A DNA stretch of 64,000 nt from Escherichia phage RB16, in the sequence record NC_014467.1. One strand, written 5' to 3'. The first letter of the stretch is position 1. Each line of letters begins with the position of its first letter. This document shows positions 3,266-18,557 of this stretch, piece after piece. Under the pieces are notes generated by a model. The model made no database searches and was not told the DNA's origin. It was given only the letters and a program-made list of their open reading frames with translations. The translations under genes and the position numbers were made by a program.

Positions 3266-3879
3266 TTTGTGAGGGTGTCCATTTGTTTTGATTTTTCCAA
3301 CAGGGTTTTGATTACCGTATCCATCGCCTGTTCTGTATCACCATCATGATAGATGATCGCGGTTTGATGCAAACCTTTCACCAGACGATTGATAATGTAC
3401 GCCATTTCGGTCGGTAACAGTTTACCCGTTTTGTTGAATTTTTCAAACAGATTGAACAGTTCTTCGTTATTCCCTTTCTTACGGAAATTGAAGTTGTGCA
3501 TCCCAGACAGAAGACTATCCAGATACAGAACTGTTTTGTTATCAGAGCGGAGGTGTCCACCGATTTTGTAGTAGTTGCTGAAAACGTATGGTGCTTCACG
3601 AACATCATCGATGTCGAAACCAGCATCATCGATATTGCCTACGTGGGAGAAGAAATCCGCATCGTTATCGAACAGATTGATCGCGCCTTTCTTGTATGGG
3701 AATCCAGCCAGGTTAATGACTCCCTTTTCATACGCATCATCGTTATCAACGACAACGTATTCAGGAAGCATAGGGGCATATGGTTTGTTTTTGTCGTGGT
3801 TTTCGCGATACGCTAAAGGTTCAGCCAGATAGAGGATATCGCCTTGTTTGACTTCATCCCAAAAGATATTACGTGACAT
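3262..3879 (-). CDS. hypothetical protein (205 aa; start trimmed to MSRNIFWD to avoid overlap with upstream gene)
   Basis: ORF track 3262-4047 trimmed to the Met at 3879. Confidence 0.45.
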   Translation of the reverse strand: MSRNIFWDEVKQGDILYLAEPLAYRENHDKNKPYAPMLPEYVVVDNDDAYEKGVINLAGFPYKKGAINLFDNDADFFSHVGNIDDAGFDIDDVREAPYVFSNYYKIGGHLRSDNKTVLYLDSLLSGMHNFNFRKKGNNEELFNLFEKFNKTGKLLPTEMAYIINRLVKGLHQTAIIYHDGDTEQAMDTVIKTLLEKSKQMDTLTK

Positions 3880-13774: not shown

Positions 13775-14836
13775 TCAAGCAACCCCCGTAAAGGCGTTTA
13801 CTATCTGGAAATGATCATCGAAGAATTCCCCTTGTCGTTGTACGACCTCATGTAAGGGCATCCAGAACGCCTCTGCTGCATCGTCAGCGCCTCCCATAAT
13901 GCGGGGCAGACTTCCATCATTGTTAGGTTCTAACTTGATGTATTGCGCTACAGTCGGTTTTGAGAAGTGTACGGAACGCTTCGGATGATCAAACAACATC
14001 GAATTGCGAATTGAACCACGGATAACCTTTTCAGGAACCTTGATCCGAACCTCTTCGAGCAATTCACGGATCGCACAATCCAGGAATGTTTCGTTTGCGT
14101 TTTTGTGTCCACCTGGCAGGGCCAACGCGCCTTTACCCGGTGCAAACTTACGACGAATTACCAGAAGGTGATTGTTACACACAACCACGCTATCACCCGT
14201 ACAACAGTTTAACGCGTCGGGGTATGGGTACGCTTTGAACTTCTCCAGTTCATCTTCCCATTTCTCGAACTCGTAGTACAAGCGCCAGAACGTATCGGTC
14301 ATCATCCATCCGTTAAGAGAACCCACGACAGCAGCAGGAACATAACGGGCGATCTTCTCGTCCCATCCATTTTTATGTAAAAATATGGTTGGACGCAGGT
14401 CGGTAGCAGATAAATCTTTGCCGTCAACCTTAACCGGATCAACCGGAACATGAGTCCATCCGAACGCTTTAAGCCAGTACGAATCAGCATCTTTTTCGTA
14501 ACCGTAGATCGCGATGTTATCGCCTTTAGTTTCGTCGATTGCTGTACGAACAGAGGTTTTCCATTTTTCTTCATTGTAAAGGTAATCTGGAATCGGTTTG
14601 AATTGCACACGGGACACATCTTCATATTTGAACTCAGACAGTAACCAGCTTGTAATCATACGTTCCCGTTCGGTTGCTGTTAGCGGGTTTAAAACGTTAG
14701 GGTAAGCATAAGCGGAACCCAGGAGGATATAAACGGCCTTCGACTCTTCAAGTGCTTTACGCACCATTGCCGCATGACCATTATGGAAGGGTTGGAATCT
14801 GCCAATTACGACAGCTTTATCAAATTTGTATTTCAT
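13775..14836 (-). CDS. natV: bifunctional NMN adenylyltransferase / Nudix hydrolase (NatV-like)
   Basis: N-terminal GRFQPFHNGH (HxGH nucleotidyltransferase motif) and C-terminal Nudix box GGHKNANETFLDCAIRELLEEVRIKV; start set at MKYKFDKAVVIGRF. Confidence 0.8.
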   Translation of the reverse strand: MKYKFDKAVVIGRFQPFHNGHAAMVRKALEESKAVYILLGSAYAYPNVLNPLTATERERMITSWLLSEFKYEDVSRVQFKPIPDYLYNEEKWKTSVRTAIDETKGDNIAIYGYEKDADSYWLKAFGWTHVPVDPVKVDGKDLSATDLRPTIFLHKNGWDEKIARYVPAAVVGSLNGWMMTDTFWRLYYEFEKWEDELEKFKAYPYPDALNCCTGDSVVVCNNHLLVIRRKFAPGKGALALPGGHKNANETFLDCAIRELLEEVRIKVPEKVIRGSIRNSMLFDHPKRSVHFSKPTVAQYIKLEPNNDGSLPRIMGGADDAAEAFWMPLHEVVQRQGEFFDDHFQIVNAFTGVA

Positions 14837-14861
14837 AACGTGCTCCACGTTTAAAGGGTAA

Positions 14862-14960
14862 TCATAAAACAGACGCAATAATCAATACACCAAGCAAACC
14901 GCCAATAAAGCCGAAGAATAGCGAAATGAAGATAGATAAGATGATCTGTTTTATGTTCAT
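14862..14960 (-). CDS. possible single-pass membrane micropeptide (32 aa)
   Basis: hand translation MNIKQIILSIFISLFFGFIGGLLGVLIIASVL; lies between SPFH gene and natV. Confidence 0.25.
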   Translation of the reverse strand: MNIKQIILSIFISLFFGFIGGLLGVLIIASVL

Positions 14961-14985
14961 TATAGTATTCTCGTTTTAAGAATCA

Positions 14986-15006
14986 AGCCCCCAAGGAAAG
15001 GGGGCT
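14986..15006 (-). terminator. stem-loop after SPFH gene
   Basis: AGCCCCC-TTTCCTT-GGGGGCT. Confidence 0.4.
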
Positions 15007-15014
15007 TTAAAATC

Positions 15015-15941
15015 TTATTTACGAGAATCGAAAATCACTTTACCAGCGTAATCTGAACCCATGACAGTCTGAGGCACATCACCTTTATAACGGGTAGAGT
15101 AGTTCATCTGTACATCCAGTTCTTTCCAGCGGATCATTTCTGGTGTGATGGTACGTTGCAACACGGCGTTCGCTTCTGCTTCTTTCTTCGCTGCATACAG
15201 TTTAGCGTCTGCATCACGTTCGTTGGCGATCGCATCGTTTTCACGCGCCTGACGATTTGCTTCCGCTTGTTTTACCTGTTGCTGTGAAGTCTGTTCGACT
15301 TTTGCCAGTTCCGCACGAGCGGCGTTAACCTGTTCTTCACGAATTTTCGTGTTAGTTACCTGTTCCATGATAACATCCGGCAGGGTGATATCCTGCAAGA
15401 ATACCTGTTTCACGGTGTAACCGTAAGGACGCGCATACTCTTCGACTTCCTGTTGAATTGCGGTCTGCAACTGGTTCTGGATCTTAGCATCAAACAGATC
15501 CTGTGCTTTTGGAACCGATTTGCCGAACTCGCGAACGGTTGACAGCAGTTTTTCGGTTACATACTTATCCAGTGCCTGTTCCTGGTCTCCCGCGTTGATG
15601 CGGTTGATAGGCGCTTTGTTACCGTCAAATTGCAGCATAACGGTCATATCAACAGTGGATTTAAACTTATCCTGTGAAGGAACCTGCAATTTATCGAACT
15701 TCTTCGCAATGTCTTTCGTGCTGAAAGTATCGAAATCAGCCAGCGGGTTTACGATATGGAAACCAGGCAGTACAGGTTTCGGAGAAACCTTACCCATGAA
15801 GGTCTGAGTTTTGACCGTGCCGTCCTGTACTACTGTAAAGGAGTTCGGAACCAGCCACAGTGCGGCTACTACGCCCAGAGCGATCAGAGTGGTTTTCTTC
15901 GGGTTGTTCAGGATAGTATTCATATTCATAGTATGTCTCAT
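15015..15941 (-). CDS. SPFH/band-7 (stomatin/prohibitin-like) membrane protein
   Basis: N-terminal TM helix TLIALGVVAALWLV followed by PHB-like region and C-terminal Ala/Gln/Glu-rich coiled coil typical of band-7 proteins. Confidence 0.6.
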   Translation of the reverse strand: MRHTMNMNTILNNPKKTTLIALGVVAALWLVPNSFTVVQDGTVKTQTFMGKVSPKPVLPGFHIVNPLADFDTFSTKDIAKKFDKLQVPSQDKFKSTVDMTVMLQFDGNKAPINRINAGDQEQALDKYVTEKLLSTVREFGKSVPKAQDLFDAKIQNQLQTAIQQEVEEYARPYGYTVKQVFLQDITLPDVIMEQVTNTKIREEQVNAARAELAKVEQTSQQQVKQAEANRQARENDAIANERDADAKLYAAKKEAEANAVLQRTITPEMIRWKELDVQMNYSTRYKGDVPQTVMGSDYAGKVIFDSRK

Positions 15942-16003: not shown

Positions 16004-16387
16004 TTAAGAAAGTTTTGTCAGCTTGTAAATCGTTTGATAGCACAAGCCTTTTATCTCGTCCATGATGTTCTTCAATGAACTATCAACTGCGTCGTAGATT
16101 TCTTCGGCTTCGGTGGCTATTTTACGGAGATACGCTACCGTGTCAAGCACATTTTCAACTTTTAATACGGGTTTGTACCTTCCGGTAATGCCTATATGGA
16201 TTTCGGTGAACTTATCGACCAGATCCTGCATATCTTCGTAAAACCCTTCATATGCTTTATGCTGTGAGTATGAACCAGTCGCGAAGTGTGCGCTGTGCAT
16301 ATACGTAACAGACATTAGGCAAGTGCCGATAAAGGCATCGATCTTACTTGTGGTATCGCGTTCTGTAATTTCGTTAAACGTCTGCAT
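16004..16387 (-). CDS. hypothetical protein (127 aa)
   Basis: ORF track. Confidence 0.45.
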   Translation of the reverse strand: MQTFNEITERDTTSKIDAFIGTCLMSVTYMHSAHFATGSYSQHKAYEGFYEDMQDLVDKFTEIHIGITGRYKPVLKVENVLDTVAYLRKIATEAEEIYDAVDSSLKNIMDEIKGLCYQTIYKLTKLS

Positions 16388-16397
16388 CTTTCATCCC

Positions 16398-16679
16398 TTA
16401 TGAACGATGAATAGAAGCGAATTCAGTTGCTACCCTAAGCCCTAAGCGTTTGCATTCAGGTTCAGATTTACACTGTTTCTGCTGCCATTTTCGTTCCATA
16501 TAATTATAGAAAAGTTCACTTGTATTTACGCTGGGAGGGATGGTGTCTAGATACACCTGTAGCGCTGCATTGATGTAGTAGTCGAATTCTTTCGGTACGA
16601 CTGAATCATCTGCGTGTGATGCTGGAGACAAGATTAACAAACCAAACATCAGCGCTTTGGATATGCGTTTAATGTTCAT
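16398..16679 (-). CDS. secreted/periplasmic small protein (signal peptide MNIKRISKALMFGLLILSPASHA)
   Basis: predicted cleavable signal peptide; start trimmed to Met preceding the hydrophobic core. Confidence 0.45.
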   Translation of the reverse strand: MNIKRISKALMFGLLILSPASHADDSVVPKEFDYYINAALQVYLDTIPPSVNTSELFYNYMERKWQQKQCKSEPECKRLGLRVATEFASIHRS

Positions 16680-16786
16680 AAGCAATTTCTCTACGTGCTT
16701 ACGGATCACCAATAGACCCGTTCCTGTATATATTTATAGCAAAAAAGGGGCAATAAACCCCTTATGTTAAATCAGTATAAAAATAA

Positions 16787-17209: not shown

Positions 17210-17794
17210 TTAACAGTTCACACCGACTTTATCAAGCACTTTTTCATGATAATGTTTCCGGCATAACGAAACATATTTGTCTTCGGCTCCGATTTCGACT
17301 TGCGCCCCTTCTGTTACGAAGTTGCATTGTGCGTCGATACGGGCGACCGTAGTTGCTTTACGTCCACAGTGACACATTCCCCGCAGTTCGCGGATCTCGT
17401 CAGCCCATGCAAGCAACCAGTAAGAACCCTCGAACAGATTCAACTGAAAGTCGGTACGCAACCCGTAGCACATCACAGGAATTTCGAGTTCATCGACAAC
17501 ACGACACAGATCGAAAACGTTTTTCTTCGAGAGGAATTGCGCTTCATCAACGAAGATGCAAGAGATATTATTCTGGCGCTGGATATCCCAGAACAGATCC
17601 ATACTTGGTGCAATCAGTTCGCAATTTGCATTTAGCCCTACACGAGAAGAAACGGTGTGCGACGTGCGAGTGTCAAGCATAGGCTTGTAGATCACAACGT
17701 TCATACCGCGTTCTTTGTAGTTGTATGCGTCTGTTAACAGTCGCGCACTTTTACCAGCGTTCATTGATGCGTAGTGATAATACAGTTTAGCCAT
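17210..17794 (-). CDS. tk: thymidine kinase
   Basis: Walker A NAGKSARL, FVDEAQF, zinc-binding C-terminus CHCGRKA...SLCRKH; near-colinear with T4 Tk as I recall it. Confidence 0.9.
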   Translation of the reverse strand: MAKLYYHYASMNAGKSARLLTDAYNYKERGMNVVIYKPMLDTRTSHTVSSRVGLNANCELIAPSMDLFWDIQRQNNISCIFVDEAQFLSKKNVFDLCRVVDELEIPVMCYGLRTDFQLNLFEGSYWLLAWADEIRELRGMCHCGRKATTVARIDAQCNFVTEGAQVEIGAEDKYVSLCRKHYHEKVLDKVGVNC

Positions 17795-17999
17795 GTTTAG
17801 CCCGTTCCTCTGCTACCGCATCAAACACCGCGTCTTCAACTTCTTTTTCGACGAATGAAATGATTTCATCAACCATGCGATCGATGTATAATTGATTGAC
17901 ATTGCGCGAATCTGGATCATCTTCTGCTGCATAATCCTGGTAAAGTTCTCCCAGTTCTTTCAGCTTGTGCTTTAACACTTTTTCTTCTTGAACTCTCAT
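17787..17999 (-). CDS. hypothetical acidic protein (70 aa)
   Basis: ORF track. Confidence 0.4.
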   Translation of the reverse strand: MRVQEEKVLKHKLKELGELYQDYAAEDDPDSRNVNQLYIDRMVDEIISFVEKEVEDAVFDAVAEERAKHG

Positions 18000-18052
18000 T
18001 CTTTATTACCCATTTTATAGCCGATCCCAATGACCAGCCCCATCAAAATAAC

Positions 18053-18071
18053 CGCGCTTATCAAAAGCGCG
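18053..18071 (-). terminator. stem-loop CGCGCTT-ATCA-AAGCGCG
   Basis: 7-bp inverted repeat in intergenic gap. Confidence 0.35.
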
Positions 18072-18230
18072 AATTGTAGACCTATGCTCATTTAAATTGA
18101 TCGTCCCATAGTTGCCACGCTTCCAGTTCATCATTGTATTCAGGGAGTGAACGTTCCCCTGGTTTCTTGACGTAATACCAGATAATGATAGCAACGGCGA
18201 TAACAGTACCGTAAAAGATAATTAATCCCA

Positions 18231-18557
18231 TTAGTATAATCCTATTCCGGCGTTATATTCATCCACCAGATAGGTACGCAGTTTTTCGCAGCGTTCCTTA
18301 TTCGGTGCGCGGGTACAGAGTTTCATCATTGGTTCAGACTGCAAAAACTCACGCTGTTTAACCAGCTTCTGACGCTTATACAGGTGCGCATTTTCTTCGC
18401 CCCACACATAAGCCGCGTCGAGTTGTTCCGCGATCACCTGGTAACATACCGCAGTATCTTTAATGTCTCGATGGTCGCAGAGTTCAGACAGACGGTTGTC
18501 ATCAACAGCGAACACGGAACCAGAAACCAAAGTCAGCAACAGCGCAAGTTTTTTCAT
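18231..18557 (-). CDS. secreted small protein with 4 Cys (signal peptide MKKLALLLTLVSGSVFA)
   Basis: predicted signal peptide; periplasmic, possible superinfection-exclusion-type protein. Confidence 0.45.
   Translation of the reverse strand: MKKLALLLTLVSGSVFAVDDNRLSELCDHRDIKDTAVCYQVIAEQLDAAYVWGEENAHLYKRQKLVKQREFLQSEPMMKLCTRAPNKERCEKLRTYLVDEYNAGIGLY

Follow-up and report, generated by a model that had tools for sequence, protein, structure and literature searches.

The window analysed here comprises 64,000 nucleotides (nt) of Escherichia phage RB16 (NC_014467.1), and this report concerns a short stretch of it in which a gene for an SPFH/Band-7 membrane protein of 308 amino acids (aa), counted from the first ATG (15015-15941), is followed by a terminator-like GC-rich hairpin (14985-15007) and then by an open reading frame (ORF) of 32 aa, MNIKQIILSIFISLFFGFIGGLLGVLIIASVL (14862-14960, stop included), hereafter the micropeptide. 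Every gene at the locus lies on the minus strand, as does every feature of the window whose coordinates are given below, and the order of transcription is tk, a 130-aa ORF, rI, rI.-1/DUF5856, SPFH, the hairpin, the 32-aa ORF and a gene for a bifunctional nicotinamide mononucleotide (NMN) adenylyltransferase/Nudix hydrolase (NadM-Nudix, natV-like; hereafter natV). The substitution patterns presented here indicate that the 32-aa ORF is very probably a protein-coding gene, and on balance we lean towards the view that its product is an independent, lineage-specific accessory membrane peptide of one group of T4-type phages.

The original prediction for this locus, made from the letters of the window, had described an ORF that was nearly all hydrophobic, separated from the SPFH gene by a hairpin, and unannotated. 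The first two points stood: the peptide has exactly the sequence then quoted, with a single N-terminal lysine and a grand average of hydropathy (GRAVY) of 2.1, which no other ATG ORF of 25-60 aa in the window reaches, and the hairpin is present between the two genes. The third holds for phages Lw1, RB43, phi5, GuL6, Margaery and Invicta and for RefSeq versions, and fails for several GenBank records in which the ORF is entered as a "hypothetical protein" (VAC13 QWY13846.1, Cronuts QPX73491.1, Phynn QDH49090.1, and others). The ORF was also predicted independently by gene-finding programs and by several depositors of GenBank records. Since 80 ORFs of at least 25 aa occur within 6 kb, a length of 32 codons is by itself not above chance, and we judge the micropeptide to be real because of its conservation and the codon-level pattern of its substitutions.

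The surrounding 1.4-kb region is 97.9% identical to that of Escherichia phage Lw1 (Pseudotevenvirus) and approximately 91% identical to that of RB43, and is matched in 177 records from Pseudotevenvirus, Slopekvirus and related T4-type phages; sequence comparison places the source phage as an RB43/Lw1-like T4-type phage of Pseudotevenvirus. We gathered homologous regions from GenBank phages, IMG/VR, JGI/ENA metagenomes and Logan assemblies, and the micropeptide ORF was intact in all syntenic genomes and contigs with intervening DNA between SPFH and natV (23 of 23). The ORF is present there in 15 distinct nucleotide versions encoding 11 distinct peptides, which fall into two length classes separated by an in-frame 12-nt indel: a 32-aa class in Pseudotevenvirus, Slopekvirus and metagenomic relatives, and a 36-aa class in Pantoea phage Phynn and three metagenomic lineages. 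All share the pattern M-[NKST]-[IT]-K-Q, an all-hydrophobic span, and G-x-x-x-G-[VF]-L-x-[VI]-A-S-V-L-stop, with a fuller glycine zipper in the sequence L055 (GxxxGxxxGxxxG) and in the 36-aa class (GxxxGxxxG). The ORF is also intact in Klebsiella phage CPRSB (OM971649.1, L074), where SPFH and natV are annotated as truncated fragments; with 442 features recorded in 180 kb, these fragments suggest sequencing frameshifts and not biology.

Selection was assessed in the middle codons of the ORF, which take no part in the RNA stems treated below. Between Lw1, whose ORF (L001) is nucleotide-identical to that of the window, and Slopekvirus, these codons differ by 14 synonymous and 4 non-synonymous changes (pS 0.82, pN 0.08; binomial p=6.5e-6, approximately 26% synonymous changes being expected). 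The synonymous to non-synonymous ratio was 9:2 for L054 against L062 (p=2e-4) and 15:11 for L054 against L070 (p=5e-4), and pN/pS was 0.08-0.3 in most pairs. Moreover, in every lineage 54-73% of the middle codons have T at position 2, even between lineages of low nucleotide identity. The initiation region of the micropeptide (GAGA-ATACTATA-ATGAA) resembles that of the SPFH gene (GAGAC-ATACTAT-ATGAA), and includes a Shine-Dalgarno (SD)-like purine tract, CGAGAA, 8 nt 5' of the ATG (14968-14973). Absence from relatives had been named beforehand as the outcome that would speak against the micropeptide; the ORF instead proved to be conserved, and its codons bear the mark of purifying selection at the protein level.

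Database searches returned little beyond the phages themselves. The micropeptide matched no family in Pfam, PHROGs, NCBIfam or PADLOC, and it has no room for an OB fold. A phmmer search against 1.84 billion representative proteins recovered a single phage orthologue, and the family is thus undetectable outside its phage clade; a degenerate DNA pattern of the micropeptide found only syntenic copies in IMG/VR, together with one out-of-frame chance match (L073). We considered a derivation from the N-terminus of RI, which has the same MNIK start, and rejected it, as there was no BLASTP alignment between the two and no Pfam match of the micropeptide to PF24205; judged from the sequences, the common start is probably a coincidence. 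An open antisense frame running across the ORF was likewise set aside, since the frequent T at codon position 2 accounts for it as an effect of composition.

The hairpin that separates the two genes, AAGCCCCC-TTTCCTT-GGGGGCTT, has an 8-base-pair (bp) stem and a 7-nt loop, and is followed by an interrupted T tract (CTTGATTCTT). Compensatory changes occur at 3 of its stem pairs among 15 relatives, and it is a real structure of the terminator type, probably a leaky one. Between the hairpin and the ORF lies a sigma70-like promoter, TTGATT-N16-TATAAT (14959-14986; 10/12 match), which has TTGACA in Slopekvirus and is an annotated promoter in the KP27 record. The 36-aa class lacks this promoter and phage Invicta has a degraded form of it, while both retain the ORF. 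Rfam yielded no family, only a chance CRISPR-DR32 match at the hairpin (E=0.04, below gathering), and no promoter-like site for an antisense RNA was predicted on the plus strand overlapping the locus.

RNAalifold, applied to the 15 versions, returned three helices: the terminator hairpin, a long-range stem of 11 bp and a hairpin at the start of natV. In the long-range stem, the 5' arm CAUAAAACAGAU, formed by codons 2-6 (14944-14955), pairs with the 3' arm GUCUGUUUUAUG, formed by the Ser-Val-Leu codons and the first two bases of the stop (14863-14874), with 96% of cells paired; one U-A pair is replaced by C-G in the 36-aa class and by U-G in L055. The fold of the 211-nt region has a z-score of -4.3. 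All 15 versions keep TCT for the Ser and GTT for the Val of this 3' arm, although synonymous sites in the middle of the ORF are near saturation, and the ends of the ORF are therefore constrained as RNA or DNA as well. In minimum free energy folds of single sequences, an outer stem appears in 15/15 versions between the last sense codons of SPFH and the SD-like tract of the micropeptide, as UUCUCG (15020-15025)/CGAGAA in the 32-aa class and CUCUC/GAGAG in the 36-aa class. The third conserved helix, AACGUG-GAG-CACGUU (14837-14851), holds the GGAG Shine-Dalgarno of natV; it does not vary among the 15 micropeptide-bearing sequences aligned, the micropeptide-less contig L050/L051 also has its ACGTGGAGCACGTT core, and it may serve in translational control or as a target of a GGAG-specific RNase of the RegB type.

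The SPFH protein had been credited with an N-terminal transmembrane (TM) helix and a C-terminal coiled coil, and rightly so according to its AlphaFold2 model (mean predicted local distance difference test score 81; 32 homologues used) and the structural matches of that model. In the model, residues 14-30 form a TM helix and 35-186 the alpha/beta SPFH domain, and two long helices follow, at 189-264 (76 residues) and 267-284. Foldseek searches of the PDB matched it over its full length to erlin1/2, HflK/C (7vhq, 7wi3, 9cz2), prohibitin, stomatin and QmcA-YbbJ (8z5g), with E-values of 1e-10 to 6e-15, probability 1.00, some 280-310 columns and 14-20% identity. In sequence searches the protein matched Pfam Band_7 (PF01145; E=2.3e-15, 57.5 bits against a gathering cutoff of 23.6, residues 46-220) and phrog_200 (E=3.4e-79); relatives annotate its start at 15929, which gives 304 aa. 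As modelled, the protein thus combines a membrane anchor, an SPFH fold and long coiled-coil helices. According to the positive-inside rule (R2, K15 and K16 precede the TM helix), its bulk should face the periplasm, as in HflK/C, from which we infer its orientation. The TM segment itself is not conserved, even inside the micropeptide-bearing clade.

In phrog_200 and RefSeq the protein carries the label "lipoprotein". A lipobox needs an invariant cysteine, and the 308-aa protein has no cysteine residue and hence no lipobox; the label is therefore unfounded, and the present analysis corrects an annotation error that has spread over hundreds of phage records. Assignment to the HflK/HflC family found no support either, with no NCBIfam model match at E<=0.01 and a lone SPFH gene in the locus in place of a K/C pair. 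The neighbours of the gene are DUF5856, the 32-aa ORF and NadM-Nudix, with no NfeD beside it as in SPFH-NfeD operons, and neither PADLOC nor NCBIfam gave a match for the SPFH protein or the micropeptide. Band 7 proteins of the T4-like phages RB43, 44RR and Aeh1 were recorded in 2006 (PMC1524935). Our literature search turned up no work on the function of phage SPFH proteins or of the micropeptide.

Homologues of the SPFH protein were found by tblastn in 721 phage records, and the micropeptide region by DNA search in approximately 175. Most of the former belong to T5-like Salmonella and Escherichia phages (72-80% identity), and others to Proteus phage J3S, T4-like phages of Aeromonas (approximately 57%), Aeh1 (29%) and Vibrio phages (24-39%). 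Outside the RB43-type clade, the micropeptide was absent at all 39 other SPFH loci inspected (30 T5-type loci from IMG/VR, T5, J3S, Aeromonas phages 31 and Aeh1, Vibrio phage 5P1c, the syntenic T4-like contig L050/L051 and the non-syntenic contig L053). The 179-kb metagenomic contig L050 (ENA ERZ1760311 NODE_5) is a natural "deletion" control for the micropeptide: it has the same order tk-rI.1-rI-rI.-1-SPFH-natV, and its SPFH-natV spacer of 56 nt (3401-3456) contains no ORF, only a terminator and the hairpin of natV. In an unbootstrapped neighbour-joining tree of SPFH proteins, the micropeptide lineages form one clade, made up by sequence of Pseudotevenvirus, Slopekvirus and Phynn-like T4-type phages, beside the T5-like and L050 clades. 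A single clade fits a single gain, and the constant adjacency of the micropeptide to SPFH consequently counts as one event. By its distribution, the SPFH protein appears to be an independent and widespread phage membrane scaffold with no need of the micropeptide.

The SPFH proteins of T5-like siphoviruses (Demerecviridae) and J3S (L011-L040, L045), at 72-80% identity to that of the window, are as close to it as distant T4-type SPFH proteins are, which implies horizontal transfer between unrelated families of virulent phages; the T5-like and T4-type carriers share enterobacterial hosts. In Aeromonas phage 31, the gene after SPFH encodes a pseudopilin-like protein of 72 aa with the canonical N-terminus of the type IV pilin kind (MKGFTLIELMIVV...; L046 3445-3663), and in Vibrio phage 5P1c a 59-aa protein with two TM helices lies just upstream of SPFH (L047 2249-2428); these two share no relationship with each other or with the micropeptide. 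A SleB-type cell-wall hydrolase (PF07486) is encoded within 1-2.5 kb of SPFH in T5, J3S and the metagenomic contig L053 (L045 5491-6263; L049 4404-4826; L053 1-117); in T5 and L053 it is accompanied by DUF7616, and T5.084, which adjoins the T5 hydrolase, has a cREC_REC receiver domain. A recurrent link of SPFH with lysis genes was not established, as no similar hydrolase is annotated near SPFH in the Aeromonas and Vibrio phages.

Upstream of SPFH lie rI.-1/DUF5856 (16004-16387; PF19174, E=3.5e-25), a T4-type RI antiholin of lysis inhibition (16398-16712; PF24205, E=4.3e-26; phrog_1246 "lysis inhibition"; annotated as such in Lw1), the 130-aa ORF (phrog_7774) between tk and rI, and tk (17210-17794). 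Downstream, natV (13775-14836) has the Pfam domains NUDIX and CTP_transf_like, and its product matches the NCBIfam PRK05379 models at E=5e-77 and 259 bits, under their equivalog cutoffs (354-449); the sequence is that of a diverged phage form of the NAD salvage enzyme. The locus belongs to the early, hyperplastic part of a T4-type genome, since the Lw1 region runs on to nrdC.11. Two more small hydrophobic ORFs lie directly upstream of tk, one of 31 aa (MSIGLQFALLISAVILMGLVIGIGYKMGNKE; 17996-18091) and one of 47 aa (MGLIIFYGTVIAVAIIIWYYVKK...; 18088-18231). At the region matching the former, Lw1 annotates a longer gene of 58 aa (gp141), and the window may therefore carry a stop or frameshift there.

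The explanation that we favor is that the micropeptide acts on its own account as an accessory membrane peptide of its clade, with the SPFH protein as one candidate target among others. It would be made from transcripts of the SPFH promoter that read through the leaky terminator hairpin, and the structure of this mRNA would keep its translation low or conditional. Pairing of the SD-like tract with the last SPFH codons could couple its synthesis to that of SPFH, terminating ribosomes perhaps relieving the block, and the 11-bp stem between codons 2-6 and the stop region would restrain initiation further. The peptide is predicted to insert into the inner membrane as a single-pass helix with its N-terminus inside (Lys4 cytoplasmic) and the C-terminal ASVL at the periplasmic face, where it may act by glycine-zipper packing of helix against helix, with itself or with a larger membrane protein.

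Several observations weigh against this explanation. The most divergent pairs have pN/pS of 0.6-1.2, at saturated synonymous sites, and the SD-like tract is a weak one (GAGA). The residues that are conserved best (MNxKQ and SVL) fall on the arms of the RNA stem, so that constraint on the RNA may explain part of the amino-acid conservation. The pairing of the outer stem was matched by 1-10% of 3'-flank shuffles, modestly above controls, and this stem is thus suggestive only. The -10 hexamer of the sigma70-like promoter overlaps the ATG of the micropeptide; transcripts from this promoter would consequently start inside the ORF, at about the 5' arm of the long-range stem, and could not encode the peptide. 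Finally, both the function and the target of the micropeptide are wholly inferred.

The original prediction suggested that the micropeptide is a partner of the SPFH protein. In its strongest form, this would make the peptide a dedicated client whose TM helix lies in or under an SPFH cage and tunes lysis timing, lysis inhibition or superinfection exclusion. The micropeptide does lie directly downstream of SPFH at every occurrence, the stem joining the end of SPFH to the SD-like tract recurs in all versions with class-specific sequences and is compatible with translational coupling, and the predicted N-in topology of both proteins would bring the SPFH domain and the C-terminus of the micropeptide to the same, periplasmic side. 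SPFH proteins are, moreover, known to enclose TM partners, QmcA-YbbJ (8z5g) and HflK/C-FtsH (7vhq, 7wi3) being among the fold matches, and an unrelated small membrane protein flanks SPFH in two other lineages (Aeromonas phage 31 and Vibrio phage 5P1c). However, most phage lineages, namely T5-like phages, J3S and Aeromonas and Vibrio phages, and even the syntenic contig L050, keep SPFH without the micropeptide, and a terminator-like hairpin and a sigma70-like promoter stand between the two genes. The SPFH TM segment varies within the micropeptide-bearing clade, the coupling stem is weakly above chance, adjacency confined to one clade amounts to one evolutionary event, and the micropeptide is without an NfeD-like domain. 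The suggested role in lysis timing or superinfection exclusion is argued from position, rI lying two genes upstream of SPFH, and this is a weak argument in a hyperplastic early region that is full of unrelated small genes. We therefore do not uphold the proposed functional pair, and consider a dedicated partnership unlikely.

Somewhat less likely still is that the micropeptide is an autonomous membrane-permeabilising effector of the type I toxin, pinholin or single-gene-lysis type, a sub-case of the explanation favored above in which glycine-zipper oligomers would depolarise or perturb the inner membrane while the fold-back of the mRNA checks synthesis. The small size, high GRAVY and lone N-terminal lysine of the peptide would suit such an effector, as would the conserved GxxxG(xxxG) zipper, extended in L055 and the 36-aa class, and an occluded SD combined with a stem that joins start-proximal and stop-proximal regions. 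Against it, neither an antisense promoter nor a small RNA is predicted on the plus strand, the C-terminus (...IIASVL) has none of the charged tail and the gene none of the adjacent endolysin that are typical of holins and pinholins, and there is no match to a PHROGs, Pfam, NCBIfam or PADLOC family.

A more elaborate version of the partnership would have the glycine-zipper helix made only after SPFH translation ends, when opening of the UUCUCG:CGAGAA stem frees the ribosome-binding site, and inserted under the periplasm-facing SPFH cage; together the two would form a phage-specific, minimal "SPFH + client" module, located near rI, controlling inner-membrane integrity or the timing of lysis inhibition. 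We regard such a gated module as improbable; if true, it would give the large phage SPFH family its first defined function and partner.

A reading to which we give very little credence is that the ORF is incidental and that the conserved element is non-coding, consisting of a terminator and promoter of the promoter-early stem-loop (PeSL) type and a structured 5' leader of the NadM-Nudix mRNA. It draws on the -10 hexamer lying over the ATG, with a predicted transcript start at the 5' arm of the long-range stem, on the synonymous constraint at the ends of the ORF, on the 11-bp stem with its one compensatory pair, on the low z-score of the 211-nt fold, and on a DNA identity of 86-97% over a 261-nt region, against mostly 80-90% for the surrounding 1.4 kb. 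However, the middle of the ORF, which would be the loop of such an RNA, has a strong excess of synonymous substitutions (p down to 6.5e-6), and the 12-nt indel keeps the reading frame. Versions with approximately 45% nucleotide identity still retain the hydrophobicity, the T at position 2 and the glycine zipper. The promoter is also missing from the 36-aa class and Invicta while the ORF is retained, and no Rfam family was found. That the ORF arose by chance in AT-rich intergenic DNA, where short ORFs are abundant, is effectively refuted by its conservation, the codon-level selection signal, the in-frame indel and its hydrophobicity, which is unequalled among the small ATG ORFs of the window.

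As the evidence stands, the micropeptide is one of many small accessory ORFs in the hyperplastic regions of T4-type phages. It nevertheless adds one well-supported gene to RB43/Lw1-type genomes, where it is mostly unannotated, and provides a clean example of a tiny phage membrane protein on which constraints at the protein level and on RNA structure are superimposed. Should it turn out to act as a client of SPFH or as an effector on the membrane, its 32 residues and one helix would make it a convenient tool for learning what phage SPFH scaffolds do.

Comparison with known systems begins with the SPFH protein, which is a member of the phage SPFH family (phrog_200; RB43ORF139c, 44RRORF098c, Aeh1ORF064c, T5.080). 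With 97% identity to RB43ORF139c and 76% to T5.080, it differs from that family by strain-level divergence only; the family, with members in T4-like, T5-like, Aeromonas and Vibrio phages (at least 721 records), has no assigned function. Like the cellular SPFH cage formers, the protein has a predicted N-terminal TM helix, SPFH domain, long coiled-coil helices and C-terminal segment. Unlike the cellular systems HflK/C-FtsH and QmcA-YbbJ/NfeD, to which its identity is 14-20%, it has no adjacent NfeD, and where QmcA has YbbJ/NfeD its neighbour is a bare 32-aa TM helix without an OB-fold domain.

The region between the two genes (14959-15007) resembles the PeSL cassettes of T4-type phages (Arbiol 2010, PMC2839356; Comeau 2014, PMC4122927), in that a hyperplastic region holds a G/C stem-loop with a near-consensus sigma70 promoter directly behind it and a small lineage-specific ORF adjacent. 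It departs from them in two respects: the -10 overlaps the start of the ORF instead of preceding the ORF, and the promoter half is not kept in all micropeptide-bearing lineages. Under strict criteria no further copies were found in the window, in which the GGGGCTTGAY motif is not enriched.

The micropeptide itself invites comparison with two groups of small hydrophobic proteins. Bacterial single-TM regulators such as AcrZ, MgrB, KdpF and CydX are 30-50 aa long, have no soluble domain, are often unannotated and act by helix packing. The micropeptide is likewise small, with one predicted TM helix and no soluble domain, but it is encoded by a phage, in an early hyperplastic region, and has no sequence similarity to them. 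In type I toxins, the mRNAs of the hok type are inhibited by folding back on themselves. With hok/Sok the micropeptide shares a very hydrophobic small product and, by prediction, an occluded SD and a pairing between the start-proximal part and the 3' end of the ORF, whereas it has neither homology nor a predicted antisense RNA promoter, and its stem closes the ORF and not the whole mRNA. Sequence comparison thus makes the micropeptide an orphan family, which, while a member of neither group by testable criteria, resembles the bacterial single-TM small proteins and, in the design of its mRNA, the type I toxins.

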